A stretch of DNA of 64,000 nt. Origin: a virus. Location: positions 94,184-158,183 of the IMG/VR virus record IMGVR_UViG_3300030012_004221. The stretch is one strand, 5' to 3'. The notes under the pieces are model-generated. The model made no database searches. It was not told the DNA's origin and saw only the letters and a program-made list of their open reading frames with translations. The translations under genes were made by a program, and so were the position numbers. This document shows positions 33,773 to 50,706 of this stretch, one piece after another (position 1 is the first letter of the stretch; the number at the start of each line of letters is the position of its first letter).

Positions 33773-35509
33773 TCAAGAAGATTTTTCTAATTGACGACTT
33801 ATTGCATCAATTACTATTTGAGGTTGAATTGATGTAGTACATTCATAATGTCTATCTGTATCCTTATGTTCAGGGCACCATTCCCAATCACCTGCATTTA
33901 ATCTTACTTTATTAAAACACCCTCCACATTTACCTTTTGGAGATTCTATTCTTTCACAATCTTTAAATTCACTATAAGCTTCACTAAATCCTGATATCAT
34001 TGTAACAGGTGTTCCTAATCCCCATGCTAACCAACTTAACCCACTTCCTATACCTATAAAAGCTTTAGCATTCATTATATCATTAGCTCTTTCACTTAGT
34101 GGAGCATCTCCTGTTTTATCAATTACTCCTTTTAAAGTACCACCTAATTTAGAATCATGCCATTCATCACCTAAAGGTTCTTGAGTAATCATTACTACTT
34201 TATAACCTTTATCATTTAAATGATTTATTACTGCTTGCCAACCACCTTTACGATTCCAATATTTAGCATGAGCCGAGCCATGTGGTGCTATTACAACATA
34301 ATCTCCTTCAATAGTTGGTCCTGTATTTTTAAATGTTAATTTAGGTTTAATTTCTTTATTATCTAATCCTAATATATCAGATGAAGCCCCCTGTAATGAT
34401 ATTTTTCTAAAATCTAAAGGATTTCTATCATGATTAATCCCTCCATCTTCATTATAATGCCAACCAACTTCATACATTGCATATAAATCAAATTGTTCTG
34501 TAGCTGGTTTTACAAATTCTATTTCTGGGTATTCATCTTTAAACCATTCATTGTGGAATGTAGATACTACTAATTTACATTTATGTTTTTTTCTAAATTC
34601 TTCAGCATATGGGAACCATGCTAAAGTATCACCAATTGCTTTAGAAGCAAAATGAATATAAACTTTTTTATTTTCTGCATTATAAACATCCTCAAAAACT
34701 AATTCATTAGTACTTGTATCTGTTACTTGAATTTTATAGTTAATAAAATATTCTTTTCCAGTTTTACACCACATATTATTGGTTATATCTGTTTCATATA
34801 TAATTTTATTATCTTTTTGATCTATAAATTTTACATTATAGTTTTTTTGATTTTTACCTAAAACTTCAAACTTACATCCCATAATATAATTTACATAAAA
34901 ATTATTTTTTGGAAATTTATATTTAATTGGTTTTTTAACTAAATTATTATACTCTTGTATTAATATTTCCTTCATACCATTTAGATCATAGTTTATGTAA
35001 TAACCATATTCTTCATTACCATATAATAATTTTAAAGATGGATATCTCTGTTTTATTACTTCAGGTGTTAAATCTTCCTGTAAATGAGTTTCATAAATAT
35101 TTCCTTCATGTTCTCCTTGTTTACTTAAATAAGGAACTGCTACTAAACATTTTATTTTATTATCATTAATTCTTTTAATTACATTTTGAGCATCTTTAGT
35201 AGTTAAATGTTCTAAAATATCACCTAAAATAATATAATCATAATTTGAAAAATTAAAATTACAAATATCCCCTTCAAATACATTTTCATAAACATCTTTT
35301 AAATTATATTTTTCAATATATGGAGAATATATTTCTAAACAGTCTAACTTAAATCCTAAAGAATAATCAAGAATATCTGAATATTTTGATAATAGATGTC
35401 CATACATTCCAGCCCCCGGACCAACGTCTAATATTTTTAAATCTCTAGGAAAATTTTTATCTAGATGATTTTGTATTTCCAATTTAAAATCAGTACTACT
35501 ATGAGGCAT
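33773..35509 (-). CDS. SAM methyltransferase fused to an Aah/TibC-like (BAHT) protein O-heptosyltransferase-family glycosyltransferase
   Basis: N-terminal LDVGPGAG...GDILEHL; then AIGDTLAWFPYAEEFRKKH.C, AKYWN..GGW, FIGIGSGLSWLAW, ISGFS and a C-x2-C-x13-C-x11-C metal motif. Confidence 0.85.
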   Translation of the reverse strand: MPHSSTDFKLEIQNHLDKNFPRDLKILDVGPGAGMYGHLLSKYSDILDYSLGFKLDCLEIYSPYIEKYNLKDVYENVFEGDICNFNFSNYDYIILGDILEHLTTKDAQNVIKRINDNKIKCLVAVPYLSKQGEHEGNIYETHLQEDLTPEVIKQRYPSLKLLYGNEEYGYYINYDLNGMKEILIQEYNNLVKKPIKYKFPKNNFYVNYIMGCKFEVLGKNQKNYNVKFIDQKDNKIIYETDITNNMWCKTGKEYFINYKIQVTDTSTNELVFEDVYNAENKKVYIHFASKAIGDTLAWFPYAEEFRKKHKCKLVVSTFHNEWFKDEYPEIEFVKPATEQFDLYAMYEVGWHYNEDGGINHDRNPLDFRKISLQGASSDILGLDNKEIKPKLTFKNTGPTIEGDYVVIAPHGSAHAKYWNRKGGWQAVINHLNDKGYKVVMITQEPLGDEWHDSKLGGTLKGVIDKTGDAPLSERANDIMNAKAFIGIGSGLSWLAWGLGTPVTMISGFSEAYSEFKDCERIESPKGKCGGCFNKVRLNAGDWEWCPEHKDTDRHYECTTSIQPQIVIDAISRQLEKSS

Positions 35510-36458
35510 ATGCTTTATAAATTTTTAATAATTCTTTTGTACGATTTAACCATGATAAATTTTGAGATGTTTCAATACATTTTTGTTGGTATTGATCCCA
35601 ATATTTTAATATATCTTTTAATCCTTTATCCATTTCGAATACATTACGAGGTGCTCTCCAACACCCGTGTAAATCAACTTCTATTTCCCAATCAGCAATA
35701 ACAGGTAAACCTGCTGCCATAGCTTCAAGCATTGTTAAATTAGGATGACCTGCTTCTAACATTGTAGGATGAATAAAAATATCATGTTTATGATATAAGT
35801 TTAATAGTTCACTATTTGGAGTATCAAATACTAGATTTAATTTTGGATAATTTAATGTCCAAAGATTTTCATTGAAAAAATTTTTATTATTAGAAGGTCC
35901 AGCTATAGTTATTTCTAAATTGTTTAACATAGCTAGCCCTATTCCAAACTGAAATCCTTTTCTATCAAACGCACGATTTCCTCCTAATCCATTATTAGCT
36001 AACATTAATAATTTTGGATTTTTTGGTTTTGGAATATTAGGTGATAAAGGATAAAAATCATCAACATTTACACCATGGGAAAAATAAATACATTTTGGGT
36101 GGTTATCAAAATATTTAACTAACCAATTAGCTGGCATTAAGGATATTAGGGATCCTTCAATTGCTTTTAAATTTTCTTTATATACATTAGATTCTTTTCC
36201 ATAATGTAAAACATGGTGATCATGTAATTGGTAAATATACGGTATACCTCTTTCTTGTAAACCAATAGCTAAATTAGCTACATGACAATGTACAATATTA
36301 AAATCACCTAATTTAATATCAGATGCCATTTTATGAGTTGAATCATGACCTAATACAGTTTGATTTACTTCAAACTCCCAAATGATTTTTTCTATAGCTC
36401 CCCAATCTTTAGGAGGTATATCTAAACCACAAGCTGGATCTACATGACATATTTTCAT
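35499..36458 (-). CDS. GT4-family glycosyltransferase
   Basis: IPPKDWGAIE, HGV, RKG, DIFIHPT..E....TMLEAMAAGLPVI. Confidence 0.9.
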   Translation of the reverse strand: MKICHVDPACGLDIPPKDWGAIEKIIWEFEVNQTVLGHDSTHKMASDIKLGDFNIVHCHVANLAIGLQERGIPYIYQLHDHHVLHYGKESNVYKENLKAIEGSLISLMPANWLVKYFDNHPKCIYFSHGVNVDDFYPLSPNIPKPKNPKLLMLANNGLGGNRAFDRKGFQFGIGLAMLNNLEITIAGPSNNKNFFNENLWTLNYPKLNLVFDTPNSELLNLYHKHDIFIHPTMLEAGHPNLTMLEAMAAGLPVIADWEIEVDLHGCWRAPRNVFEMDKGLKDILKYWDQYQQKCIETSQNLSWLNRTKELLKIYKAYAS

Positions 36459-39154
36459 TCCTTAGCGTATATTAATGGACTATTTTCATCCATTGATTTA
36501 TCTTCTTGTTCTATAATACTAAATCCAGGCAAGTGTTTAGTATAAATTTTTTCTGCTGTACCTACTTTTAATTGAGCTACATTACATACCCACATATCAA
36601 AAGCATCCCATTTAGTATTTTTAACTTTATTTTGAATATATTCTATTTTATCATTATTAATTAAATAAGACTGAGCTGGGATAAATGGTGTTACATGAGT
36701 ATAAATATCTTCTACTTTTGGACCATTTAAGTTTCTATTTTGGTAAGGATTACCAAAACCAATTAAATCTTGATCTTGATCTTTAGCAATTTTACTAAAA
36801 CGTATTAATGAATCATATAATTCATCATAATCAGAATCTATTATAACATCACCTTCAAATATTAAAATATAATCATAATTTACATTATCTTCTGCTAATA
36901 AAGCATCTGTATGGGCTTTGTAACACCCATAATGTCCAGGAGCTAATTTATAATAACCTGGTTTATCTTGTACATCATTTGGTCTATTACAAGTATCTTT
37001 AGGAGGTACATCTTTCCAAATAGCATTAACACGCATTTCATACTCAATATTTTTTACTTTACAAAAATCTTTAATATTTTTTACTGAACGTATTTCTTTA
37101 GGATTAGTTTCAGGTTCAGTAACTAAATGCATTAATTTAATTTTTTTAGTTTCATAATTACTTCTATTACCTTTCCATTTAAATATACCATTATTAGGCA
37201 TTACATTTAAAAAATAATCTTTATCTAAATTAAACTCATGAGTAACAATATGATTACCCGTATTTAAATCATTAACTTCAAATTTTACTTTAAATTTATC
37301 TGTTAAATTATATTTGATTAAATCCCAAAATGAATATTTACCTCTAACCTCTAATTTTCTATCAATTATTAATTGGTTATTTTTTATTACAGTGTAATTT
37401 ATTAATTTACTTTCTTTAGCATTAGATATTGTTACCCAGGGGCAAAAATGGTTATCTACGTCTGTAGGTAATATAGTATAATACTCAACCATTGAATAGT
37501 CCTCAAATTCAAAATATTTTTCGGCATCTGCCTCAAATTTATCCCTTGGTTCTATGTAATTGCCTTTATTATTTTTAAATATATGGTAATATAAATTTTC
37601 AATACCATTAGATTCAGAACCATGCTCATCCATTAAATTATTATATTGGTCTTCGGTTTCTATAAATTTACAATTATTTAATATTGCTTCTGGTTTAGCA
37701 CTAAAAAAGTAAGTATAATAACATTTACCTTCTTGTGCTTCAAATTCACCAAAGAAAGTATCATGATTATTTAATTTTTCAGAAATATAATCTATATAAC
37801 TACTATCTTTTAATATATAATCAAAATTTATATAATGTAATTTTTTTATACCTAACCCTTTAGCAAATGTAGCTGGGTTATAAAAAGATGTATAGCAGGC
37901 AGGTCCATGATATCTATCATTATCTTCACCTTTTAAATTTACATAAGTATCATATTCGTTGTGATATAACCAATACCCAGAATAAAAAGTATGTTTAGTT
38001 AAAAGATTATTTTTTTCATAAAACACATAATCTACTTCATCTTGTAATATTTTTGGAACAGCACAATGAGCTGATATTATAATTCTTCTATTATCTTTTT
38101 TAAGTGATTTTATACATTCTAATGTAGTATCGACTGATGCTTGTGTTTTTGGATAAGTGCATATTACATAAGCTTCTTCATGTTTATTTATAATATTTTC
38201 TCCAAGATGTTGTTTTATTTTTATTACATTATCATCAAAATTATCAAAATCTAAATAATTAATAGAATTATAATTATCAAAATAGTTTTGATATACTTCT
38301 AAATTATATAATAATTGAGGAATTTGGTATGATAAGGCTTCACGTATTACTAAAGGCATTGTTTCTTTATCATTTTTACTTCCTCTAGATGTAAATAAAA
38401 ATAAATCCATTGATTGATAAAAATTATTTACATCTGTTCTTTCATTCCACCAAGTAATATTATTTGGTTTTTCTTTCATTAAAGGTTCCCAATACCATTT
38501 AAAATTATCTGCCTGATTACCTACACAATGAAATTCATACTCAGGTAATGCTTTAGCATACTCAAAAAATTCTTTTTGATTTTTTCTTGGTGTAAATAAA
38601 CCAATATGTAAAATATGCTTTTTAGAAGGATCTAAATTTAAACGTTTTAAAGCAATTTCTCTATCAGGTCTAGGAATATATTCAATTGGATATTCAACTA
38701 ATATTTTAGGTATATCTATGTTCTTATATTGTTCTATTTGCCAGTTAGATACAAACATAAATTTATCAGGAAAATATAGTTTATTATTAGTATCCATTGA
38801 AGAATCATGAGATGTTTCTACTAAAAAATAATTTCTATCTACAGAATAAAGTTTTCTAGCTATATCATCATCCATAAAATACTCAGGTATTTCTTCTAAA
38901 TGAATAATATCAGGTTGGATTTTTTCAATTATAGTAAATAATACATCTTTATTTTCATCAAGAGTAAAAAATTTATCTTTATCTACTAATTCTAATAATT
39001 TATTTTTAGTTACTACTAACCTTCCCCCAGTACAGTCTACCCATTCAACAACGTATACTTCAAACTCATTTTTAATAAGTTCAATTTTTTTAGTTAAATA
39101 TTGGGGTAATCCTCCAGTAGAAAGATGTGGTGCAATAAATAAGAGTTTTTGCAT
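36455..39154 (-). CDS. Multidomain glycosyltransferase (N-terminal GT4-like, central GT-A-like, C-terminal GT25-like)
   Basis: PHLSTGGLPQY, RKNQ, DLFLFTS..ETMPLVIREA; central YINFDY; C-terminal GHYGCYKAH, ILIFEGD, AQSYLI. Confidence 0.85.
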   Translation of the reverse strand: MQKLLFIAPHLSTGGLPQYLTKKIELIKNEFEVYVVEWVDCTGGRLVVTKNKLLELVDKDKFFTLDENKDVLFTIIEKIQPDIIHLEEIPEYFMDDDIARKLYSVDRNYFLVETSHDSSMDTNNKLYFPDKFMFVSNWQIEQYKNIDIPKILVEYPIEYIPRPDREIALKRLNLDPSKKHILHIGLFTPRKNQKEFFEYAKALPEYEFHCVGNQADNFKWYWEPLMKEKPNNITWWNERTDVNNFYQSMDLFLFTSRGSKNDKETMPLVIREALSYQIPQLLYNLEVYQNYFDNYNSINYLDFDNFDDNVIKIKQHLGENIINKHEEAYVICTYPKTQASVDTTLECIKSLKKDNRRIIISAHCAVPKILQDEVDYVFYEKNNLLTKHTFYSGYWLYHNEYDTYVNLKGEDNDRYHGPACYTSFYNPATFAKGLGIKKLHYINFDYILKDSSYIDYISEKLNNHDTFFGEFEAQEGKCYYTYFFSAKPEAILNNCKFIETEDQYNNLMDEHGSESNGIENLYYHIFKNNKGNYIEPRDKFEADAEKYFEFEDYSMVEYYTILPTDVDNHFCPWVTISNAKESKLINYTVIKNNQLIIDRKLEVRGKYSFWDLIKYNLTDKFKVKFEVNDLNTGNHIVTHEFNLDKDYFLNVMPNNGIFKWKGNRSNYETKKIKLMHLVTEPETNPKEIRSVKNIKDFCKVKNIEYEMRVNAIWKDVPPKDTCNRPNDVQDKPGYYKLAPGHYGCYKAHTDALLAEDNVNYDYILIFEGDVIIDSDYDELYDSLIRFSKIAKDQDQDLIGFGNPYQNRNLNGPKVEDIYTHVTPFIPAQSYLINNDKIEYIQNKVKNTKWDAFDMWVCNVAQLKVGTAEKIYTKHLPGFSIIEQEDKSMDENSPLIYAKE

Positions 39155-39227: not shown

Positions 39228-39932
39228 TTATGTAACACTTATTACATTAGCAATATCACCTGAATCAACACCATTTACCTCGTCAATGTTTGTTGCTGCT
39301 ACTACATTAACTTGATTTCCATAACCTGCTGCTGTGAAATCAAATTCTAAAAACACTTTATTTGCATCTGATCCTTGAAGATTAAAATTATTAAAGTGAT
39401 TTGTTGGATCACCTGCATCTATTCCAGTAAAATCATTTTGTTGCATAATGCAAATTCTCAAAGCACCATTAGTACCAATGTTACTAACTGCTGTTGAATT
39501 TAAAGGAATTGATTGTTGAGTATTACTATCAGCTAAGGTTATATTTGTTGAGTAAGATGTTCCTGTATCTATATTATCAAAATATTCATCTGAGGAATAC
39601 GCCGAAAAAGTTGTGCCATTACCACCCATTCCTGAAAATTTAACTACTCTAGCTGTGTTATTTGCATTTGATGATGTAGTTGGCTTATATTTCAAAACTA
39701 AGTTTGTAATTGTTCCAGATTGATAAGCAGACATATTAAAACCAGCATAAAATCTTGTAACACTATATGATGAACCACCTCTTCCTGTTGATAAAATATA
39801 TCTAACAGTTGTAACATTACTACTAGTTGAGTTATTTGTATTAAATGCAGAGTTACCTTCTCTAGCATCATCATAACTTCCTTGATTTGATCTTCCAGCG
39901 AGGGCTGTTTGTGTAGCATCAACTGTAGGCAT
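39228..39932 (-). CDS. Putative fibre-associated structural protein
   Basis: Ser/Thr/Asn/Gly-rich beta protein with a repeated VN.V tail; co-transcribed with the giant fibre. Confidence 0.6.
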   Translation of the reverse strand: MPTVDATQTALAGRSNQGSYDDAREGNSAFNTNNSTSSNVTTVRYILSTGRGGSSYSVTRFYAGFNMSAYQSGTITNLVLKYKPTTSSNANNTARVVKFSGMGGNGTTFSAYSSDEYFDNIDTGTSYSTNITLADSNTQQSIPLNSTAVSNIGTNGALRICIMQQNDFTGIDAGDPTNHFNNFNLQGSDANKVFLEFDFTAAGYGNQVNVVAATNIDEVNGVDSGDIANVISVT

Positions 39933-39934
39933 AA

Positions 39935-40495
39935 TTAAAACTGTTTTTTAGGTAAATAATATTGTGAGTAATTAAAATAACAATTTGTTGGAGGTGTAAC
40001 ATCATGTACATCATAAGTTACATCTGGTATATTATAAAAATTGTTTGATCCAGTCATTGAATTCCACCAAGTTGCTTTTCCTCCTACTTTCATTAATGGT
40101 GAAAGTGAGGATGAAAATTGTTTTATATGTTGATCTCCCCAAGTATCTAAAAATAAACCATCGTAAGTACTTAAAGTATCTTTTACATTATACCAGTCAC
40201 CTTCAACTATAGTTACATTAGATTTATCTGCAGCCCATGCTTGAGCTTTAGGAATTATGTCAGGATGATTTTCTATAATTGTATGTGAATTAATTGTATG
40301 TTGTTGAATATAACCAGCTGCTATACCCATTCCAAATCCAATTTCAAGAATATCACCACCTCCTTCACATATATAAGCTGCTGAAGCAGACATTAAAGAA
40401 TCTTCCCAATCCATCATAACCTCATAGGTTTCTCCATATTCAGTATAATGAATTTTATCTGAATCAAACGTTAAACTTTGAGATAAATAAGCCAT
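39935..40495 (-). CDS. RMT2/GAMT-like class I SAM methyltransferase
   Basis: VMMDWE..LM, ILEIGFGMGI, HTIIE.HPD, EGDW, YDGLFLDTW. Confidence 0.8.
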   Translation of the reverse strand: MAYLSQSLTFDSDKIHYTEYGETYEVMMDWEDSLMSASAAYICEGGGDILEIGFGMGIAAGYIQQHTINSHTIIENHPDIIPKAQAWAADKSNVTIVEGDWYNVKDTLSTYDGLFLDTWGDQHIKQFSSSLSPLMKVGGKATWWNSMTGSNNFYNIPDVTYDVHDVTPPTNCYFNYSQYYLPKKQF

Positions 40496-40505
40496 AATTT
40501 AACTA

Positions 40506-43500
40506 TTAAGATCTTTTTACATATGTTTTATCTGGATCAAAGTAAAGAGTTTCTGAATCTACTACATAACCTACAATTCTTACTATATTACCAGTACTTG
40601 ATGGTGCTGTAGTACCAATACCACCACTTGTATCATTTAAGAATAATTTTGAACCTACTGTAAATCCATGGCTATTTTTACAAACAAATCCTTGTAACAT
40701 CATACCATCTGTTGATGAATTACTTCCTAATGCATATGCTAACCAACCACCTCCGGCTGTTTCTGAAGCTTTTGAAGCTGTAGACCATGCTCCTCCTGAT
40801 GTCCAATAATATACTTTACCTATAGTTACTGAATCATTTCCTAATTTAACTACAACACCAGAAGCACTTGTTTCTTCATCAGATAATTCACCTGTAAGTG
40901 CTAGTACAGCAGCATCAGAAAGTGTTAAATATTGGTAATTATTTCCAGTAGCTATCTCAATTTGGCTATCAACATCTATTTCTGAATTTGAATTATCCCA
41001 TCTTAATAAACCACCATCATTAGTTCCATTTATATCTAATGATAAAGTTCTATTTTGATCTAATGTAGCACTTGCTCCACCATTAATTCTTATAGGAGCA
41101 GTTGCTGTAATAGTAATTGATGAACCTGATCCTCCTACTACACCTGAAGATCCACTTGATCCTGATGAACCTGATGTTGCACTATTTCCTGATCCACCTT
41201 CTGCACCATCTGCACCATTTGATCCTGATGAACCACTTGTTCCTGAAACTTTACTTGCACCTGATACACCTGAGTTACCATTCGAACCTGAAGATCCTGT
41301 TGTACCTGAAGTACCTGAAAGTGCACTAGCACCTGCACCACCTGCGTTACCACTTGAACCTGATGATCCTGAAGATCCTGAGGTTTGTGATGAAGCACTT
41401 GCTCCTCTTTCTCCTAATTCACCTGAAGATCCACTTGATCCTGATGAACCACTTGTAGATGATGATTTACTTGCTCCTGGACTACCTGTTGCACCATTTG
41501 ATCCTGATGAACCTGAAGTACCTGAAACTGCACTAGCACCTGAACCACCTGCATTACCACTTGAACCTGTTGATCCTGAAGATCCTGAGGTATTACTTGA
41601 TGCACTTGCACCTCTTTCTCCTGCTTGACCACTAGAACCACTTGATCCTGAGGAACCACTTGTAGCTGAAGATTTACTTGATCCTGGACTACCTGCTGCA
41701 CCATTTGATCCTGATGAACCTGAAGTACCTGAAGCTGCACTTGCGCCAGAAGCACCTGGTTCACCAGCTATACCATTAGAACCATTTGATCCTGAAGTAC
41801 CTGAAACTGCACTAGCACCACTTTCACCTGGTTCGCCATCTCCACCACTTGAACCTGATGAACCACTTGAACCTGAAGTTCCTGATCCTTTACTTGCTCC
41901 ACTTCCTCCTGCGGCACCAGTTGAACCACTTGATCCTGAAGATCCTGAGGTATTACTTGATGCACTTGCACCTGCTTCTCCTGCTTGACCATTAGATCCA
42001 GATGAACCTGAAGTACCTGAAACTGCACTTGCACCAGAAGCACCTGCGTTACCACTTGAACCTGTTGATCCTGAAGATCCTGACGTACCTGAACCTGCAC
42101 TTTGACCATTACCACCTGTAATACCTGATGAACCACTAGATCCTGATGAGCCGCTTGTACCTGATGCTTTGCTTGCTCCACTTCCACCTGCTGCACCACT
42201 TGAACCTGTTGAACCAGATGAACCTGAAGTTCCTGATCCTTTACTTTGTCCACTTCCTCCAGTATTACCTGAAGAACCAGATGATCCACTTGATCCCGAA
42301 GTATTACTTGATGCACTTGCACCTGCTTCTCCAGCTCCTCCACTTGAACCACTTGATCCAGATGAACCACTTGTAGCGGATGCAGCACTTGCTCCTGCTT
42401 CACCTGCTTGACCATTTGAACCTGATGAACCACTTGTTCCTGAAACTGCACTAGCACCTGAACCACCTGCATTACCGCTTGAACCTGTTGATCCCGAAGA
42501 TCCTGAAGTACCTGATCCTTTACTTGCTCCATTTCCTCCTGTAGCACCAGTTGAACCACTTGATCCTGATGAACCACTTGTACCTGATGCTCTACTTGCA
42601 CCTGATTCACCTGCTGATCCTGTTGTACCATCTGCACCTGAAGACCCTGCTGATCCTGAAGTATTACTTAATCCTGACGCTCCTGCATTACCTGAAGAAC
42701 CATTTGATCCCGATGAACCTGAAGTACCTGATGCTCTACTTGCTCCACTTCCACCTGTAGCACCAGAAGAACCAGTTGAACCTGAAGATCCGCTTGTACC
42801 TGATCCTTTACTTTGTCCACTTCCTCCAGCGTTACCTGAAGAACCAGATGATCCACTTGATCCTGAAGTTGCTGATGATGCACTTGCACCTGCTTCTCCA
42901 GCTCCTCCACTTGAACCACTTGATCCACTAGAACCAGAAGTTGCACTTACTGCGCTTGCTCCTGCTTCACCTGCTTGACCATTTGAACCGGATGAACCTG
43001 AAGTACCTGAAACTGCACTTGCACCAGAAGCACCTGCGTTACCACTTGAACCTGTTGATCCTGATGAACCACTAGTTCCTGATCCTTTACTTGCTCCATT
43101 TCCACCTGCTGCACCAGTTGAACCACTTGATCCACTAGAACCAGAAGTTGCACTTGCTGCACTTGCTCCTGCTTCACCTGATGAACCTGTAGTACCATCT
43201 GCTCCACTTGAACCAGCTGAACCTGATGTACCACTTAAACCTGAAGCACCTGATACACCTGAAGATCCTGTTGAACCAGAAGTACCACTTGCTCCTGAGG
43301 AACCATTTGTTCCTGTTGCTGCACTAGCACCATTTGAACCTGAAGATCCTGATGTACCACTTAAACCTGAAGATCCTGAAGTTGCGCTTGCTCCTGACTC
43401 TCCTGCATTACCACTCGAACCATTTGAACCTGATGAACCACTTGTAGATGATGATGCGCTTGCTCCTGCTTCACCTGCTGCACCACTAGAACCACTTGAT

Positions 43501-46500
43501 CCACTAGAACCAGAAGTATTACTAGCTGCACTTGCACCTGCTTCTCCTGCATTACCATTAGAACCACTTGATCCTGAAGATCCTGAAGTGTTTGAAGATG
43601 CACTTACACCTCCATCACCTGCATTACCATTTGAACCACTTGAACCAGATGAACCACTTGTAGCTGAAGCTGCACTAGCACCTGCTTCTCCTGCTGATCC
43701 TGTTGTACCGTCTGCACCCGAAGATCCCGATGAACCTGAAGTATTACTTAATCCTGATACTCCTGCATTACCTGAAGAGCCATTTGATCCTGATGAACCA
43801 CTTGTAGCTGAAGCTTTACTTGCTCCCGCAGCACCTGCATCACCACTTGAACCACTTGATCCTGAAGATCCTGAAGTGTTTGAAGATGCACTTGCACCTG
43901 CTGCACCTGCATTACCAGTTGAACCTGAAGAACCTGAAGAACCTGATGTACCACTTAAAGCACTTGCTCCACTTGAACCTGCTGTACCACTTCCACCACT
44001 TAATCCTGATGATCCTGTTGAACCTGAAGTTGCACTATCACCTGATGAACCTGTAGTTCCATCTGCACCTGAGGATCCTGCTGAACCAGAAGTACCACTT
44101 AAACCACTCGCACCTGATACACCTGCTGAACCTGCTGAACCACTAGTTCCTGAAGCACCTGAAGAACCATTTGTTCCTGTTGCAGCACTTGCTCCACTTG
44201 AACCTGTTGAACCTGAAGTTCCACTTAATCCTGAAGAACCTGAAGTAGCACTTGCACCTGATTCACCTGCATTACCGCTTGAACCATTTGAGCCCGAACT
44301 ACCACTTGTAGATGAAGCTGCACTTGCACCAGCATTACCTGCCGCACCACTTGAACCTGAAGATCCTGAAGATCCACTTGTACCTGATTGTTTACTTTCC
44401 CCACTTGATCCTGTTGTACCATCTGCTCCACTTGAACCAGCTGATCCTGAAGTACCACTTAAACCACTTGCACCTGATACACCTGCTGAACCCGCAGATC
44501 CTGAAGTACCACTTGCTCCTGAAGAACCATTTGTTCCTGTTGCAGCACTAGCACCATTTGAACCAGATGAACCTGAAGTTCCACTTTCTCCAGAAGAGCC
44601 AGATGTTGCACTTGCACCTGATTCACCGGCATTACCACTCGATCCATTAGACCCTGAAGATCCTGATGTTGATGATACAGCACTTGCTCCTGCATTACCT
44701 GCTGCACCACTTGAACCACTTGATCCAGATGAACCACTTGTACCTGATTGTTTGCTTTCTCCACTTGAACCTGTTGTTCCATCTGCACCTGAAGATCCTG
44801 CTGATCCTGAGGTACCACTTAAACCACTTGCACCTGATACACCAGCAGATCCTGTTGAACCTGAAGTACCACTTGCTCCTGAAGAACCGTTTGTTCCTGT
44901 TCCTCCACTTGCACCTGAAGATCCTGTTGAACCTGATGTTCCACTTAATCCTGAAGAACCTGAAGTAGCACTTGCACCTGATTCACCTGCATTACCGCTT
45001 GAACCGTTAGATCCTGATGAACCAGAAGTTGCACTTGCTGCACTTGCACCTGCATCACCTGCCGCACCACTAGAACCATTTGAACCTGATGAACCTGAAG
45101 TTCCACTTTCTCCACTTGAACCTGTTGTTCCATCTGCACCTGAGGATCCTGCTGAACCAGAAGTACCACTTAAACCTGAAGCACCTGATACACCTGCTGA
45201 ACCCGTTGAACCTGAAGTACCACTTGCTCCTGAAGAACCGTTTGTTCCTGTTGCAGCACTTGCTCCACTGGAACCTGTTGAACCTGATGTTCCACTTTCT
45301 CCAGAAGAACCTGAAGTTCCACTACCTCCAGATTCACCGGCGTTACCGTTTGAACCATTTGATCCTGATGAACCGGAAGTTGCACTTGCTGCACTTGCAC
45401 CAGCGTTACCTGCTGCACCACTTGAACCATTAGATCCTGAAGATCCTGATGTTGCACTATCACCTGATGAACCTGTTGTTCCATCTGCTCCACTTGAACC
45501 AGCTGAACCTGATGTACCACTTAATCCACTTGCACCTGATATACCTGCAGATCCTGTTGAACCACTAGTCCCTGAAGCGCCTGAAGAACCGTTTGTTCCT
45601 GTTCCTCCACTTGCACCATTTGAACCTGAAGATCCTGATGTACCACTTTCACCTGAAGATCCTGATGTAGCACTTGCACCTGATTCACCAGCGTTACCAC
45701 TTGAACCGTTTGAACCTGATGAGCCGCTTGTAGCTGAAGCTGCACTTGCTCCTGCATTACCTGCTGCACCACTAGAACCATTCGAACCTGATGAACCTGA
45801 AGTTCCACTTTCTCCAGAAGAACCTGTTGTACCGTCAGCACCTGAAGATCCTGCTGAACCAGAAGTACCACTTAAACCACTTGCACCCGATATACCTGCT
45901 GAACCTGTTGAACCAGAGGTACCACTTGCACCTGAAGAACCATTTGTTCCTGTTCCTCCACTTGCACCATTTGAACCTGATGAACCTGAAGTTCCACTTT
46001 CTCCAGAAGAACCAGATGTTGCACTAGCGCCAGATTCACCAGCGTTACCACTAGAACCATTTGAACCTGAACTACCACTTGTAGCTGATGCAGCGCTTGC
46101 TCCTGCTGCTCCTGCTCCTCCACTTGAACCATTTGATCCTGAAGATCCTGAAGTTCCACTTTCTCCACTTGAACCTGTTGTTCCATCTGCACCTGAAGAT
46201 CCTGCTGATCCTGAAGTTCCTGCTAAACCTGAAGCACCTGATACACCTGCTGAACCACTAGATCCTGAAGTTGCAGAAGCACCACTTGAACCTACTGTTC
46301 CTGTTGCACCACTTACACCACTTGAACCTGTTGAACCTGAGGTAGCTGACTCACCTGAAGATCCTGTTGTACCATCGTCACCTGAAGATCCTGAAGAACC
46401 ATTAGTTCCACTTAAACCTGAAACACCTGCTACACCAGATGATCCCGAAGTACCATTTCCACCACTTGATCCTGATGAACCTGATGTACCAGCTGAACCT

Positions 46501-47909
46501 GATGTACCTGAATTACCTGCTTCACCTGATGAACCTGTAGTACCATCTGCTCCACTTGATCCTGATGAACCTGAAGTTCCTGCTAGACCTGAAGCACCTG
46601 ATACACCACTTGAACCTTGTGAACCTGAAGTTGCACTTGCACCACTTGAACCTACTGTTCCTGTTGCACCACTCACTCCTGAAGATCCTGATGATCCTGA
46701 TGTTTTACTTTCACCTGAAGAACCTGTTGTACCATCATCACCTGAAGAACCCGATGAACCATTAGTACCACTTAATCCTGAAACACCAGCTACACCGGAT
46801 GAACCTGAAGTACCATTTGCACCACTTGAACCAGATGAACCTGCTGAACCAGAAGTACCACTTACACCTGAAGAACCACTTGTACCTGATTGTTTACTTT
46901 CTCCACTTGAACCTGTTGTACCGTCATCTCCTGATGATCCTGAAGAACCATTAGTTCCACTTAAACCTGAAACACCTGCTACACCAGATGATCCTGAAGT
47001 ACCGTTTGCTCCACTTGAACCAGATGAACCTCCTGAACCTGAAGACCCTGCTGTACCTGATTGGCCAGCTGTACCACTAGAGCCTGCTATACCACTAGTA
47101 CCACTTGATACTTCAACAAATCCTATTTTACCTGATCCTGTTGCATATGTTAATACAAAAGGAAAATCTTGAACTGGTGCTGATTTTATTTGGAATTCAT
47201 TTCCAGTTCCACTTATATCAAATGTACTACTACCTGTTACTGCAAAACCTCCACTATCAGATCCTGTTATTTGAGCTGATCCTGAAAACGGAAAACCTGC
47301 ACCACCTCCTAATCCATCATTTAAAGTTCTAGCTACATATTGATAAACTGAACATTTTACTGTATCACCTGTAGTAGGTGCTACATCTGCATCATTAAAT
47401 TGTATTACACCTGTTTTATAATCAAATTGGTAATTTGCTGCATTCTGTTTAGTACCATTTACTCTAATAGTTACATTATAACCTGGTGTTGCATCTTCTG
47501 TATCTGCATTTGATAAAGAAGGATCTGAGTATTTAGGAGAAATAAAACTTCCTTGTTGGCCTGCCTGTAAAATTTGAGGTGTTACTGCTGTAGTAGGATC
47601 ATGTCCTGAAGCTGATATAAAGAAGAATACTTCTGTTTTACTACCATTTACAACATTTGAAGGTGTTAATGTGAATTGATAATAATATTTTAATAAGTCA
47701 GCACTTCCAGATAAAACAGTAGATTCATTCTGACTACTACCAGAATATGGCAATCCCGTAGCAGGGATAGCTGCTTGATCTATATAGATTTCAGTAGCAT
47801 TGAGGTCAAGTACTCGCGTGAATGCTTCTTGTGCATCCGTACTTGACTCCATTGTATATCTTCTACTCTGGAGTAACCTATTTGATTTTTTAGTTTTATC
47901 TAATGCCAT
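40506..47909 (-). CDS. Giant Gly/Ser triplet-repeat (collagen-like) fibre protein
   Basis: About 270-aa N-terminal domain, 1995-aa triplet region and about 200-aa C-terminal domain. Confidence 0.85.
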   Translation of the reverse strand: MALDKTKKSNRLLQSRRYTMESSTDAQEAFTRVLDLNATEIYIDQAAIPATGLPYSGSSQNESTVLSGSADLLKYYYQFTLTPSNVVNGSKTEVFFFISASGHDPTTAVTPQILQAGQQGSFISPKYSDPSLSNADTEDATPGYNVTIRVNGTKQNAANYQFDYKTGVIQFNDADVAPTTGDTVKCSVYQYVARTLNDGLGGGAGFPFSGSAQITGSDSGGFAVTGSSTFDISGTGNEFQIKSAPVQDFPFVLTYATGSGKIGFVEVSSGTSGIAGSSGTAGQSGTAGSSGSGGSSGSSGANGTSGSSGVAGVSGLSGTNGSSGSSGDDGTTGSSGESKQSGTSGSSGVSGTSGSAGSSGSSGANGTSGSSGVAGVSGLSGTNGSSGSSGDDGTTGSSGESKTSGSSGSSGVSGATGTVGSSGASATSGSQGSSGVSGASGLAGTSGSSGSSGADGTTGSSGEAGNSGTSGSAGTSGSSGSSGGNGTSGSSGVAGVSGLSGTNGSSGSSGDDGTTGSSGESATSGSTGSSGVSGATGTVGSSGASATSGSSGSAGVSGASGLAGTSGSAGSSGADGTTGSSGESGTSGSSGSNGSSGGAGAAGASAASATSGSSGSNGSSGNAGESGASATSGSSGESGTSGSSGSNGASGGTGTNGSSGASGTSGSTGSAGISGASGLSGTSGSAGSSGADGTTGSSGESGTSGSSGSNGSSGAAGNAGASAASATSGSSGSNGSSGNAGESGASATSGSSGESGTSGSSGSNGASGGTGTNGSSGASGTSGSTGSAGISGASGLSGTSGSAGSSGADGTTGSSGDSATSGSSGSNGSSGAAGNAGASAASATSGSSGSNGSNGNAGESGGSGTSGSSGESGTSGSTGSSGASAATGTNGSSGASGTSGSTGSAGVSGASGLSGTSGSAGSSGADGTTGSSGESGTSGSSGSNGSSGAAGDAGASAASATSGSSGSNGSSGNAGESGASATSGSSGLSGTSGSTGSSGASGGTGTNGSSGASGTSGSTGSAGVSGASGLSGTSGSAGSSGADGTTGSSGESKQSGTSGSSGSSGSSGAAGNAGASAVSSTSGSSGSNGSSGNAGESGASATSGSSGESGTSGSSGSNGASAATGTNGSSGASGTSGSAGSAGVSGASGLSGTSGSAGSSGADGTTGSSGESKQSGTSGSSGSSGSSGAAGNAGASAASSTSGSSGSNGSSGNAGESGASATSGSSGLSGTSGSTGSSGASAATGTNGSSGASGTSGSAGSAGVSGASGLSGTSGSAGSSGADGTTGSSGDSATSGSTGSSGLSGGSGTAGSSGASALSGTSGSSGSSGSTGNAGAAGASASSNTSGSSGSSGSSGDAGAAGASKASATSGSSGSNGSSGNAGVSGLSNTSGSSGSSGADGTTGSAGEAGASAASATSGSSGSSGSNGNAGDGGVSASSNTSGSSGSSGSNGNAGEAGASAASNTSGSSGSSGSSGAAGEAGASASSSTSGSSGSNGSSGNAGESGASATSGSSGLSGTSGSSGSNGASAATGTNGSSGASGTSGSTGSSGVSGASGLSGTSGSAGSSGADGTTGSSGEAGASAASATSGSSGSSGSTGAAGGNGASKGSGTSGSSGSTGSSGNAGASGASAVSGTSGSSGSNGQAGEAGASAVSATSGSSGSSGSSGGAGEAGASASSATSGSSGSSGSSGNAGGSGQSKGSGTSGSSGSTGSSGATGGSGASRASGTSGSSGSNGSSGNAGASGLSNTSGSAGSSGADGTTGSAGESGASRASGTSGSSGSSGSTGATGGNGASKGSGTSGSSGSTGSSGNAGGSGASAVSGTSGSSGSNGQAGEAGASAASATSGSSGSSGSSGGAGEAGASASSNTSGSSGSSGSSGNTGGSGQSKGSGTSGSSGSTGSSGAAGGSGASKASGTSGSSGSSGSSGITGGNGQSAGSGTSGSSGSTGSSGNAGASGASAVSGTSGSSGSNGQAGEAGASASSNTSGSSGSSGSTGAAGGSGASKGSGTSGSSGSSGSSGGDGEPGESGASAVSGTSGSNGSNGIAGEPGASGASAASGTSGSSGSNGAAGSPGSSKSSATSGSSGSSGSSGQAGERGASASSNTSGSSGSTGSSGNAGGSGASAVSGTSGSSGSNGATGSPGASKSSSTSGSSGSSGSSGELGERGASASSQTSGSSGSSGSSGNAGGAGASALSGTSGTTGSSGSNGNSGVSGASKVSGTSGSSGSNGADGAEGGSGNSATSGSSGSSGSSGVVGGSGSSITITATAPIRINGGASATLDQNRTLSLDINGTNDGGLLRWDNSNSEIDVDSQIEIATGNNYQYLTLSDAAVLALTGELSDEETSASGVVVKLGNDSVTIGKVYYWTSGGAWSTASKASETAGGGWLAYALGSNSSTDGMMLQGFVCKNSHGFTVGSKLFLNDTSGGIGTTAPSSTGNIVRIVGYVVDSETLYFDPDKTYVKRS
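41118..47102 (-). repeat. 9-nt (Gly-X-Y) periodic region of 5985 nt = 665 triplets, with 351/360-nt higher-order repeats
   Basis: First Gly codon at 47100-47102, last GSS ends at 41118. The landmark gtaccacttaa recurs with its tta at 44099, 44459, 44819, 45170, 45521 and 45872. Confidence 0.9.
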
Positions 47910-47916
47910 TCTTTAT

Positions 47917-50706
47917 TTATGCAATTGTTATTGTTATATCTTCTACTGGTGTTGGATCACCTTTATACCTTATTATAACTATAAAGTCTTGATCGGATCC
48001 ATCCAAAATCATACCATCACCGTTACGAAGAGGTATATTATAATTATTTCCATTTACACTACCACCTACATTACCATATAAAGCAATATTTGTTGTAAAT
48101 GGGTTTTTAAACCCATCATTAGCTATACTAGCTGATATAACATTGTCTACTGTGTTTGTAGGGTCAAAAATTCTTGGTGGAGTATAGTTACCTGTTCCTG
48201 AGCTTTGAAATATAATTGCAGCGGACACACCATTAGTAAATGGTTCCTGCCAAGGATTTAAAGTAGTACCTAAACTCATAGTTACACTACCAGCTCCTGT
48301 TCCTAAAGTTCTTTGAAATGCTCTAGCATAATAAATATAATCTCCTGATGAACCATTAGCAGGTGACCAATAACCATTTGTACCACCTGGTTCAACTAAA
48401 TATCCTGGTTTTACTTGCAATTCTAAAGGATCTAATACAAATTCACTATAACTAGATGTATCAAACTTATCACCACCAGCGTAAGTTCCTACAAGTAAAT
48501 TATTATTAATTTTAATCCTATTATTTTCTCCTGAAAAATTTTCTGAGAATGAAGTTGTTCCTGTTAATGAACTACCATCATATCCCTGAGCTCTACCATA
48601 ATATGCCATTGAACCTGATGCTGCATCTTGGCCAAAAGTTCCAGGTTTAAAATACTCAAATGTATTTGTATTTGTTGTTATATCAACCCCATTTCTTCTT
48701 CTACATCTATCCTCAGCAGTAAATGTTGTTGGTGATATTGAAGTTTGAGTTATATTAGTTGAACCAGCACTTCCAGCATTTACTGTTAAACTACCGGTTA
48801 ATTTTACTATATCAGTTTCAAATGGAACTGTACTTGTTGCTCTAGCAGTTGTACCTGTAGAATCAAATATAAAATTAGCTGTTTGTATTGTACCACCACT
48901 TAGAGAACCCGCACTAACACCTGTTCCACCATCTGCAATAGTTAAAATACCTACTGATTCAAATATTCTAGCAAATGTAGAACTTGCAGCATATAAAGGA
49001 TCAAATGCATTAGTAATTGAAGCTGATGATTCCCAAGTAGCTGTTAGTAAATAAGGTGCACCTGAAAGTGATCTTGATGTTGCAGTTAATGATTGACTAC
49101 CTGCACTTGCTATAGTTGGGGTATTTGTTGGTACATTTGTATTAATTTGTGTTGTTGGGGCATAAAATACTTCTATATTATTTTCAAAAAATGTTGAATA
49201 ATTAGAGGATCCAGATTGTATACCTACAGATTGAGATAAGTAATAATATCCTGATGATGAAGGTGATGTTAATGATACTCCATCGTTATAAAAACCTTGA
49301 TCAAATACACCTGCAAATTTACCATCTTGAAAAGCATCAGGAATTAAAGGATTACCTGTTGATATATCTCCAACAGTTAAACCATCAGATGTTCCTGCTC
49401 CTGTTCTTGTTAAAAAGTGTACTGATGCTGATGACACTGTTAATGTTTTTGAACTATTATTAGCAAATCTATTCATTTGTGAACTCGATACATTAAATGC
49501 TGAGTTAATAGCTCCTAATCCAAATAATTGTGAGTCAACTGATGATGATACTATAGTTGTACCACCAGCTACAGATTGATAAGATCTATTATATGCAGAG
49601 CTATTAGCGATAGGTGATATTCCTTGAAATATCTGTTGACCTGCTGTTGCAAATCCTTTAGATTGTAAATAATTAATTGTATCGTTAGTACTTGTTTGAG
49701 GTACACGTCCACTAGGTGCTGTACCAGTAGTAGCATTTGTAGTTGCTACGCCTAAACTCGCGTAAGTACGCGTATTGGGTGATGCATCTGGTGCAGAAGC
49801 ACTTAATAAACCAGCCATAAATCTTAAAATTTCTGCTGTGTCTGTATTATGATCAAAATTATTAAAATATGAACCATCTAAATCTGTTTTCCATGCTTTT
49901 GATGTAGGAATACCTACATTATCTGTATAATGCCATATTGATTGACTTATAGTCATTGCATATTTATCTACACCTCCTCCTGTTCCTGCATTTGAAGCTG
50001 TTATATTAGCACCTGTTGTTGTAAATGGAGATTGTTGTATTGTACTTCCTGTTACTTGTAATGAAGAGGTTGTACCAAATATATCACCTGTTACAACATT
50101 AAAAATACCATCTACTGTAGAACTACCTCCACTTCCATATGAACCTGTATAATAAACTAATCCTGTTGATTCATCTCTTACTAATACTCCATATGTTTGT
50201 CCTGGGTTTTGAGATGCACTTATTTGTAAAAATGCTGATGTACTTATATTACCTGATGCTGTTATTTCACTAGCAACTACTTGAGCACTAGAGCTAATAA
50301 TACCAGATGCAGTTATATTATTATTTACATATAATGAAGATGATAAATCAACATCTCCTGTTATATTAAGAGAACCTGTTATTTGTAAATCGTTTGTAGT
50401 AGCAAAAAATGAACCAGTTTGAACAAATATACCTGATCCTCCTCCACCACCACCACCTGTGGATGAAATTGTTACTACACCTTTACCATCAGCAGGTGAT
50501 ATTGAAACATTAGATCCTGCTATAATTTGTTGAACACCTTCTGTAGCTGAACTAATATCTACACTATGGGTAACACTACTACTAGGAAAGAAAAATGACA
50601 GAATAGATGCAGATACAGAACTAGAAACATACAGCGACTGAAAATTGCCATCTACTTCTGCGAATGTTAACTCGGAACCTTTGTTCTGTCTTAATATTAT
50701 ACCCAT
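47917..50706 (-). CDS. Virion fibre/appendage protein
   Basis: N-terminal LRQNKGSELTFAEVDGNF motif typical of phage fibre N-termini; Ser/Thr/Gly-rich; late motif upstream. Confidence 0.7.
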   Translation of the reverse strand: MGIILRQNKGSELTFAEVDGNFQSLYVSSSVSASILSFFFPSSSVTHSVDISSATEGVQQIIAGSNVSISPADGKGVVTISSTGGGGGGGSGIFVQTGSFFATTNDLQITGSLNITGDVDLSSSLYVNNNITASGIISSSAQVVASEITASGNISTSAFLQISASQNPGQTYGVLVRDESTGLVYYTGSYGSGGSSTVDGIFNVVTGDIFGTTSSLQVTGSTIQQSPFTTTGANITASNAGTGGGVDKYAMTISQSIWHYTDNVGIPTSKAWKTDLDGSYFNNFDHNTDTAEILRFMAGLLSASAPDASPNTRTYASLGVATTNATTGTAPSGRVPQTSTNDTINYLQSKGFATAGQQIFQGISPIANSSAYNRSYQSVAGGTTIVSSSVDSQLFGLGAINSAFNVSSSQMNRFANNSSKTLTVSSASVHFLTRTGAGTSDGLTVGDISTGNPLIPDAFQDGKFAGVFDQGFYNDGVSLTSPSSSGYYYLSQSVGIQSGSSNYSTFFENNIEVFYAPTTQINTNVPTNTPTIASAGSQSLTATSRSLSGAPYLLTATWESSASITNAFDPLYAASSTFARIFESVGILTIADGGTGVSAGSLSGGTIQTANFIFDSTGTTARATSTVPFETDIVKLTGSLTVNAGSAGSTNITQTSISPTTFTAEDRCRRRNGVDITTNTNTFEYFKPGTFGQDAASGSMAYYGRAQGYDGSSLTGTTSFSENFSGENNRIKINNNLLVGTYAGGDKFDTSSYSEFVLDPLELQVKPGYLVEPGGTNGYWSPANGSSGDYIYYARAFQRTLGTGAGSVTMSLGTTLNPWQEPFTNGVSAAIIFQSSGTGNYTPPRIFDPTNTVDNVISASIANDGFKNPFTTNIALYGNVGGSVNGNNYNIPLRNGDGMILDGSDQDFIVIIRYKGDPTPVEDITITIA

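Follow-up and report, generated by a model that had tools for sequence, protein, structure and literature searches.

A giant, nearly proline-free collagen-like fibre gene and its TibC-type heptosyltransferase neighbour in an uncultured marine Bacteroidota phage

What could stabilize a collagen-like fibre that contains almost no proline, and what would a phage use it for? The question is raised by a single open reading frame (ORF) that encodes a complete protein of 2467 amino acids (aa; P0001) at positions 40506–47909 of a 64,000-nucleotide (nt) stretch of viral DNA, called the window below, which covers positions 94,184 to 158,183 of the IMG/VR virus record IMGVR_UViG_3300030012_004221 and is the final 64 kb of that single-contig record (158,183 bp, estimated to be 97% complete). 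Genes and domains lie on the minus strand of the window unless stated otherwise. The protein consists of an N-terminal region (aa 1–269; 47103–47909), in which a conserved beta-sandwich (approximately aa 35–200) is followed by a Gly/Ser-rich connector and which is presumed to be the virion anchor; a nearly Pro-free shaft of 665 Gly-X-Y triplets (aa 270–2264; 41118–47102), recognized by its composition and by the collagen family PF01391; and a C-terminal non-collagen part (aa 2265–2467; 40509–41117) that was modelled as an intertwined trimer by three-copy structure prediction. We give roughly an even chance to the reading that this protein forms an exceptionally long, three-module homotrimeric virion filament with an O-glycosylated collagen-type shaft, carried by a marine Bacteroidota myophage.

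The shaft comprises 5985 nt, that is 1995 codons, and is read in one register from end to end without a single break; the first-pass annotation, made from the letters alone, had described 665 in-register triplets here, and both its coordinates and its arithmetic are exact. The first triplet position is Gly in 581 of the 665 triplets and otherwise Ala (55), Lys (14), Asn (8), Ser (4), Arg (2) or Gln (1). Position X is mostly Ser (259), Thr (122) and Ala (121), followed by Glu (36), Gly (29), Val (28), Asn (26) and Leu (20), while position Y is dominated by Ser (454), with Ala (87), Thr (49), Asn (45), Asp (16) and Pro (4). Ser occupies 68% of Y and 39% of X, Ser and Thr together make up 44% of the shaft, and the 1995 residues include only four Pro (about 0.2%) and one aromatic residue. 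Glu, Val, Leu, Gln and Ile are almost confined to X, and the compositions of X and Y differ sharply. Gly amounts to 612 of 1995 residues (30.7%) but takes only 31 of the 1330 X and Y positions. With 31% Ser against a genome median of 5.7%, the fibre is the most Ser-rich protein of the phage, an extreme outlier, and it is the sole collagen-type gene in the 158-kb genome.

The 84 triplets that lack the leading Gly form 40 single and 22 double interruptions, none of which shifts the register, and the longest uninterrupted Gly-X-Y run is 31 triplets. Replacement of the Gly residue without loss of register had been proposed earlier on the basis of the strings GAS-AAS-ATS-GSS and GES-KQS-GTS, both of which are indeed present. 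The commonest distance between the starts of interruptions is eight triplets (40 intervals), most regularly so in the C-terminal half, and defines a 24-residue super-repeat, conserved across the clade, in which the Gly site is replaced by Ala, Lys, Asn or Gln every eight triplets. The consensus of this unit reads G-x-S/[A,K,N]-x-S/[G,A,N]-T-S/G-S-S/G-S-x/G-S-x/G-x-A/G-x-S and contains several invariant columns. The repeat also holds a 1194-aa open frame on the plus strand (43588–47172), antisense to the fibre gene, and several ORFs of 80–290 aa in other frames; these result from the restricted codon set of the repeat (GGT, TCA, GGA, GCA, AGT), and it is very unlikely that any of them is a gene.

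The shaft belongs to the collagen family by the PF01391 model, which it matches with 258 bits against a cut-off of 27.2 (E 2e-78) over aa 270–900, and its matches in Pfam and the PDB are collagens only. Collagen-like proteins are stabilized by Pro or hydroxyproline, by KGE or KGD salt bridges, or by Thr glycosylation, and KGD alone accounts for about 13% of viral collagen-like triplets (PMC11923368). The usual stabilizers, Pro or hydroxyproline and Lys-Gly-Glu/Asp pairs, are missing from this shaft, in which KGE, KGD, RGE and RGD triplets number zero, as they also do in three relatives (L005, L012 and L015). The earlier description of the protein as ‘not an ordinary collagen’ is thereby borne out. 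Because Pro stands at about 0.2% and salt-bridge triplets are absent, glycosylation is the only stabilizer route left, and we therefore propose that the shaft would owe its stability to O-glycosylation of its Ser residues. With a single Gly in each three-residue period and a lack of hydrophobic residues, the shaft would fit a collagen-type or polyproline-II-type helix.

Could the length of the shaft be an artefact produced by the assembly of a shorter repeat? The first-pass annotation had raised assembly inflation as a worry, and short-read contigs do break inside the region, while many related contigs end in the repeat; contigs of these phages often end at the fibre gene because of it. The longest exact direct repeat within the 5985-nt region is only 74 nt, however, the repeats having diverged. 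Logan contigs from four runs, belonging to four separate marine metagenome studies, place exact pieces on every part of the region (for example 41142–41449, 42465–42828 and 46644–46965), and their summed depth over the repeat is not below that of the flanks. Joints between Logan contigs have sides of 20–34 nt that probably reflect repeats or other strains, and no length variants were derived from them. Independent assemblies contain two complete relative genes, one of 2542 aa with 701 triplets and the other of 3007 aa with 843; in another relative, the incomplete gene already has at least 1008 triplets of the same kind, and an identical (100%) 2146-aa stretch occurs in contigs from two different samples. 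The length of the fibre gene is real sequence, and we regard the probability of an assembly artefact as close to negligible.

Comparison with relatives bears on whether the shaft is folded. Members of the clade keep one register over 545 to 1018 triplets, all of them Pro-free and with Ser in approximately 65–72% of Y positions, while their repeat sequences differ, X being mostly Thr in some and the Gly site being taken by Gln or Asn in others. When strains are compared, conservation is highest at the Gly site (88%, against 60% and 63% at the other two triplet positions). Gap lengths in the strain alignments are divisible by three for 20 of 21 and 17 of 17 gaps, and for 24 of 33 when the most distant pair is aligned, a pattern that is supportive rather than independent evidence because an aligner prefers three-residue gaps in periodic sequence. 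In one relative (L015, IMGVR_UViG_3300037842_001040), Gly-site replacements occur every four triplets and not every eight (150 intervals), Ala stands at 155 of 1018 first positions, and the contig ends after 3325 aa without the frame having closed.

Long conserved register, Gly-site conservation and threefold indels suggest that the shaft is probably structured and not disordered. This matters for the principal alternative, in which the shaft is no triple helix but a mucin-like, heavily O-glycosylated, flexible and extended tether that is trimeric only through its terminal domains. Such a tether would suit the lack of Pro and salt-bridge triplets, the high combined share of Ser and Thr and the multi-enzyme glycosylation cluster that adjoins the fibre gene (see below), and we take it seriously as a minority possibility. 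A disordered linker needs no register, however, and the diverged relatives nevertheless maintain theirs over hundreds of triplets, with Gly as the most conserved residue, unequal X and Y compositions and strain indels in threes.

A further alternative is that the chain folds back into a compact polyglycine-II bundle or sheet of the kind found in snow-flea antifreeze protein or phage S16 gp38, and forms a much shorter rod. The three-residue period without hydrophobic residues is compatible with this, and the 24-residue unit could hold two short helices and two turns. Known polyglycine-II bundles need Gly at about half of their positions, however, whereas Gly makes up less than one-third of this shaft and is almost never found in X or Y, and runs of up to 31 triplets pass without a turn signal; the bundle, which the first-pass annotation had listed, is a poor fit and highly improbable. 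That annotation had offered three candidate structures for the shaft, a glycan-stabilized triple helix, a polyglycine-II bundle and a flexible glyco-tether; its glycan idea is strongly supported by the gene context. Three other ideas were rejected: a beta-solenoid, because the shaft repeats every three residues and has less than 3% Val, Leu and Ile combined; a silk-like beta sheet, which requires a two-residue period; and an antifreeze or ice-binding role, on which nothing bears. At the standard collagen rise of 0.286 nm per residue, the 1995 residues would span approximately 0.57 micrometres if fully extended, and the shafts of relatives 0.72 and >0.86 micrometres, compared with a tail of about 135 nm (903 tape measure residues × 0.15 nm). 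The earlier estimate of about 570 nm, several times the tail length, is thus arithmetically right but holds only for a fully extended shaft.

The glycosylation hypothesis draws on a cluster of modification genes directly downstream of the fibre gene. Its key member (578 aa; 33773–35509) is a fusion of a methyltransferase domain (aa 1–160), which matches phage methyltransferases, and an Aah/TibC-type O-heptosyltransferase domain (approximately aa 208–572). The protein scores 322.9 bits against the TIGR04414 equivalog model (cut-off 200) and matches TibC in the PDB (4RAP) with E 3.3e-63 over aa 221–565; the catalytic Asp110 of TibC and the iron-finger residues Cys339, 342, 358 and 370 (numbering from PMC4358343) all align with identical residues. 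Judged from its sequence, it is a bona fide member of the Aah/TibC-type Ser O-heptosyltransferase family, a family name that database pipelines already assign automatically, and it would be expected to transfer heptose from ADP-heptose to Ser. TibC itself modifies Ser, not Thr (PMC4358343). The methyltransferase fusion is not universal, as the match in the relatives G001 and G002 begins at residue 175 and the open frame there is about 400 aa; in G002 and G003, the heptosyltransferase match contains one TAA.

Between the fibre gene and the heptosyltransferase gene lie four further ORFs. The largest encodes an 899-aa two-domain glycosyltransferase (36455–39154) with a GT1/GT4-type domain (aa 165–300; PF00534, E 4e-11) and a weak GT25-like match at approximately aa 694–791 (PF01755, E 1.8e-4, with 21.9 bits below the cut-off of 24), and it is kept in G001 and G002 at 73–80% identity. 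A GT1-family glycosyltransferase of 319 aa (35499–36458; PF00534, E 1.8e-8) is likewise kept in both. Next to the fibre gene is a 186-aa S-adenosylmethionine-dependent methyltransferase-like protein (39935–40495; Methyltransf_25 and RrnaAD matches below their cut-offs, 79% identity in G002), followed by a 234-aa protein (39228–39932) for which no family was found and which has a weak homologue in the same place in G002. The weak GT25-like match maps to 36455–37654 (−), in the C-terminal half of the 899-aa protein. GT25 includes collagen galactosyltransferases that act on hydroxylysine, and the fibre shaft has Lys or Arg at 16 of its Gly sites; the link is a lead only. Beyond the heptosyltransferase gene, a 499-aa protein (32247–33746; 45% identity in G002, no family) lies between the transferases and the tail sheath, and its membership in the system is uncertain.

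The linkage of the heptosyltransferase with collagen-like fibres extends beyond this genome. The block of fibre, 899-aa and 319-aa glycosyltransferases and TibC-like enzyme is conserved in three diverged relatives (G001, G002 and G003). Among viral TibC-like loci with more than 6.5 kb of upstream sequence, a Pro-free GX[S/T] collagen-like ORF lies upstream on the same strand in 20 of 20, although the gene order is conserved in largely one phage lineage and these are not 20 independent events. Where more than 5.4 kb is available, the proportion is 29 of 31, and the two exceptions carry extra modification genes, so that the retrieved flank ends too early. Conversely, no TibC-like enzyme is found in four genomes that combine the N-terminal domain of the fibre with a non-collagen shaft, nor in the closest cultured phage, Flavobacterium phage immuto. 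The TibC-like enzyme occurs on over 200 viral contigs and the fibre in several marine metagenome studies.

It could be argued that the transferases act on host envelope glycans or on some other protein, and that the fibre is unmodified, marginally stable and suited to cold water. Phage glycosyltransferases are usually interpreted as modifying host O-antigen or DNA (PMC7029224), and the GT4 and GT25 matches in the cluster are generic. Nevertheless, the Aah/TibC family comprises protein Ser O-glycosyltransferases, its gene shows tight linkage to Pro-free collagen-like genes and is absent from genomes with a non-collagen shaft, and the cluster lies inside the virion-gene block; we therefore consider a different target quite unlikely.

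Related clusters elsewhere vary in content. In one relative (L161:211-6306, IMGVR_UViG_3300001352_000232), a larger modification cluster upstream of the TibC-like gene includes a GT2–methyltransferase fusion, a DUF6445 protein, a 2OG-Fe(II) oxygenase (PF13640) and a fusion of an FkbM methyltransferase with a GT4 domain; PF13640 is a prolyl-hydroxylase-type family, and an oxygenase of this kind next to a collagen-like fibre is a hint that some lineages may use hydroxylation. In Microcystis phage Mel-JY01 (PP395634.1 4750-8430, L086), a TibC-like domain ends a 1226-aa protein annotated as an FkbM methyltransferase, and no collagen-like neighbour is annotated. TibC-like domains are also present in huge uncultured phages of 636–735 kb (LR756501, LR756503 and LR756504).

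The genomic setting of the fibre gene indicates what kind of particle it belongs to. Nearly all larger ORFs of the window are on the minus strand, and PHROG matches identify a prohead protease, major head protein, PhoH, head-tail adaptor, tail sheath, tail tube, baseplate hub and wedge protein. The 903-aa ORF encodes a tape measure protein that matches its counterpart in immuto with E 2e-40, and the two phages share 58% identity in the major capsid protein. The phage is an uncultured marine immuto-like myophage, and its host is probably a member of the Bacteroidota. Within the one-strand gene run, the fibre gene falls between neck and tail sheath genes, in a slot that corresponds to the position of the annotated fibre genes in immuto; its position from neck to sheath and this shared slot support a role of the fibre in the virion. 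Outside the window (G000:C1:20567-28510 (-)), the genome contains another giant ORF, which encodes 2648 aa and has a Ser content of 10.9%.

Structure prediction was most informative at the C-terminal end, which the first-pass annotation had likened to capsid-decoration-type trimer domains. A monomer model of the C-terminal part has moderate confidence (predicted local distance difference test, pLDDT, 70–88). In VIA-align comparisons with the PDB, the terminal beta-tulip-like knob (approximately aa 2339–2467; 40509–40895) matches almost exclusively capsid decoration or cement proteins, at Z scores of 9.4 to 5.3 that indicate a shared fold and with the decoration protein of phage Adjutor at the top (Z 9.4, root-mean-square deviation 2.7, 112 aligned), ahead of Pam3 (8.7), HFTV1 (7.9), Patience (7.7) and XM1 (7.5); TW1 (5.8) and the phi29 head-fibre base (4.9) score lower. 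The knob is the last ~130 residues of a 2467-aa fibre and not a small stand-alone protein of the capsid lattice. The same knob ends otherwise unrelated fibres, namely immuto gp047, an annotated tail fibre (39% identity), and a 1780-aa beta-type fibre, and in BFVD it ends many long phage proteins, some of which are named collagen repeat, Mtd-type or tail-fibre-like.

When three copies of aa 2165–2467 were modelled together, the trimer scored 0.92 against 0.00 for the best of three controls, a mark that was reached by 20 of 30 proteins solved as one-chain pairs and by 1 of 23 solved as single chains; because a custom alignment and three copies were used, this calibration is only rough, and as solved decoration trimers are similar, the pass may partly reflect that likeness. 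Runs agreed in at least 80% of contacts, with a partner pLDDT of at least 73. Confident contacts begin at fragment residue 100, where the collagen-like part ends, and lie in aa 2264–2462. The 99 collagen-like residues of the fragment have no confident inter-chain contacts and are uninformative on the triple helix. The likeness to decoration proteins is thus upheld by the structural matches, and the C-terminal part is predicted to be a trimer; it is in the model that the shaft acquires the adjacent trimerizing domain expected of collagens.

The opposite end of the fibre carries a different signal. Among 1.8 billion library proteins, the N-terminal domain (first ~230 residues) finds homologues in 238 representative clusters at E ≤ 1e-3, and the shafts behind it are hypervariable, including Ser/Thr-rich beta-type repeats, short forms and very long forms; collagen-like shafts are limited to the closest clade (N-terminal domain identity of at least 62%). 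An AlphaFold2 model gives a beta sandwich (pLDDT >90 for aa 40–200) that has no clear relative in the PDB (best VIA-align Z 4.7); the best Foldseek match was the N-terminus of CBA120 TSP4 (E 7e-3), and the Atlas returned only unnamed viral clusters. These structural matches are too weak to place the anchor at the baseplate or the neck. In sequence searches, the N- and C-terminal parts had no Pfam or PHROG match except an unnamed PHROG for the C-terminal end, the PDB gave chance hits only for the end domains, and tblastn of the N-terminal domain against 50,697 cultured phage records gave no match. Directly upstream of the fibre gene lies a gene for a 929-aa protein of unknown family (47917–50706), which synteny identifies as its conserved partner: in nearly all of 80 viral loci a homologue is directly upstream of the gene with the N-terminal domain, preceded in most of them by the adaptor homologue and two small genes. 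The 929-aa protein had no match in Pfam, PHROG, the PDB or the 50,697 cultured phage records, and an Atlas hint that it resembles T4 gp9/10 was set aside because its score of 0.79 is within chance. The gene pair is conserved in many uncultured phages with genomes of approximately 150–320 kb.

A conserved N-terminal domain with variable distal parts is the usual pattern of an N-terminal virion anchor, which is what we presume from these sequences. The orientation could also be the reverse, the protein being a head fibre whose C-terminal trimer sits at threefold positions of the capsid, like the base of phi29 gp8.5, with the shaft and the N-terminal domain pointing outward. The nearly exclusive resemblance of the C-terminal domain to capsid decoration and cement proteins, including the phi29 head-fibre base, and its modelling as a trimer would agree with this arrangement. 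We nevertheless consider it rather unlikely, in that the same C-terminal domain ends many unrelated long fibres, annotated tail fibres and Mtd-type proteins among them, while the N-terminal domain is the lineage-conserved end and is always preceded by one and the same partner gene, with variation in the distal parts.

For the glycosylated, N-terminally anchored filament, the trimer, triple helix, glycosylation, anchoring end and function are elements that we infer, and they can be combined as follows. Late in infection, the C-terminal domain would align three chains in register, and the shaft would then zip from the C- to the N-terminal end into a collagen-type triple helix of approximately 0.57 micrometres. 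Five genes downstream of the fibre gene lies that of the TibC/Aah-type heptosyltransferase, an enzyme that would initiate the glycans; the GT4, GT25-like and GT1 enzymes could extend them and the methyltransferase domains modify them, and dense O-glycosylation of the X and Y serines would supply stability and stiffness. Gly-site replacements every eight triplets (about 6.9 nm) may act as periodic soft joints that keep the register. The N-terminal domain, probably together with the 929-aa protein, would dock the fibre on the particle, and the likely benefit would be a much greater reach, in dilute seawater, for the capture of host cells or particles. We put forward more tentatively, as a less likely proposal, that these shafts form a new kind of collagen, a proline- and salt-bridge-free triple helix of 0.57 to >0.86 micrometres, stiffened by phage TibC-type O-heptosyl-Ser, and are the longest fibres known for tailed phages, the mark of a widespread and wholly uncultured group of marine Bacteroidota phages.

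Several points weigh against the glycosylated triple-helical filament, in addition to the shared ancestry behind the gene linkage. Ser is a poor triple-helix former in host–guest studies, Ser/Gly-rich Pro-free sequence is also typical of disordered linkers, and Lys or Arg at a Gly site should locally disrupt a tight triple helix. Known TibC substrates are beta-helical autotransporters and not collagen-like chains; the canonical autotransporter target, the strand-loop-strand repeat TIGR04415, has no match in the phage genome, while an E. coli control was positive. GmhA (PF13580) of the ADP-heptose pathway was not found in the phage genome, and any donor ADP-heptose would therefore have to come from the host. 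The decoration-type fold predicted for the knob would allow capsid contact by the C-terminal rather than the N-terminal end. Finally, shaft glycosylation, the triple helix and the presence of the fibre in the virion are all conclusions that we infer from genes and their neighbours.

Three elements of this system are already known separately, namely collagen-like fibres in phages, glycosylated collagen-like proteins in bacteria, and the Aah/TibC enzymes. We found no paper on a phage TibC-type enzyme, a Pro-free phage collagen or the fibres of this phage group, and no description of the three elements in combination, of a Pro- and salt-bridge-free shaft or of the conserved 24-residue interrupted unit. 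If the shaft is a glycan-dependent triple helix, collagen can be stabilized by Ser-linked sugars alone, which would widen the collagen folding code and offer a proline-free scaffold for engineering. Aah/TibC heptosyltransferases would be extended from proteobacterial adhesins to phage virion proteins, which would add an independent second example of phage self-glycosylation to that of the mycobacteriophages, and a filament several times the length of the phage would alter adsorption models for abundant marine Bacteroidota phages.

The fibre shares features with several known systems. Collagen-like fibres of the PF01391 family, such as prophage EPclA and streptococcal Scl2, also have Gly at every third residue, an adjacent non-collagen trimerizing domain and a place as a phage fibre module, but they use Pro in X, charged pairs or both (PMC11923368), whereas this shaft has four Pro and no KGE or KGD. 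Collagens further differ in size, with 330 triplets in the longest human chains against 665 to 1008 or more in this clade, and in lacking a Gly-site replacement every eight triplets. Riftia cuticle collagen, with galactosyl-Thr in Y, and Bacillus BclA, with GPT repeats, are similar in having a hydroxy residue in Y and a glycan as proposed stabilizer (PMC11923368); here the residue is Ser instead of Thr, X is Pro-free as well, the putative starter enzyme is a heptosyltransferase and the glycan is a predicted one. BclA also resembles the proposed filament in forming O-glycosylated exosporium hairs that make a nap on the particle surface, and differs in its terminal domain, the fibre having a decoration-protein fold. 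The knob of BclA is TNF/C1q-like.

In the virions of mycobacteriophages and in the glycosylated, collagen-containing fibrils of mimivirus, virus-encoded glycosyltransferases are thought to decorate the virus’s own structural proteins, although these cases involve other enzyme families, other hosts and other substrates (capsid and tail-tube tails, or hydroxylysine). To our knowledge, neither a TibC-type enzyme nor a giant Ser-rich shaft has been described for mycobacteriophage or mimivirus glycosylation. The Aah/TibC systems with AIDA-I or TibA are closest on the side of the enzyme, sharing the equivalog, the catalytic Asp and the iron finger in a family that glycosylates many Ser residues of a long, repetitive surface fibre encoded nearby. 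In this case, by contrast, the enzyme is encoded by a Bacteroidota phage and fused to a methyltransferase, and its neighbour is collagen-like instead of a 19-residue beta-helix, the target repeat being absent. On the side of the virion, Flavobacterium phage vB_FspM_immuto (Immutovirus) lacks the N-terminal domain, the 929-aa partner, the collagen-like shaft and the TibC-like gene, but it shares the order of head, neck, fibre-slot, sheath, tube and tape-measure genes and, in gp047, the knob with which the fibre ends.

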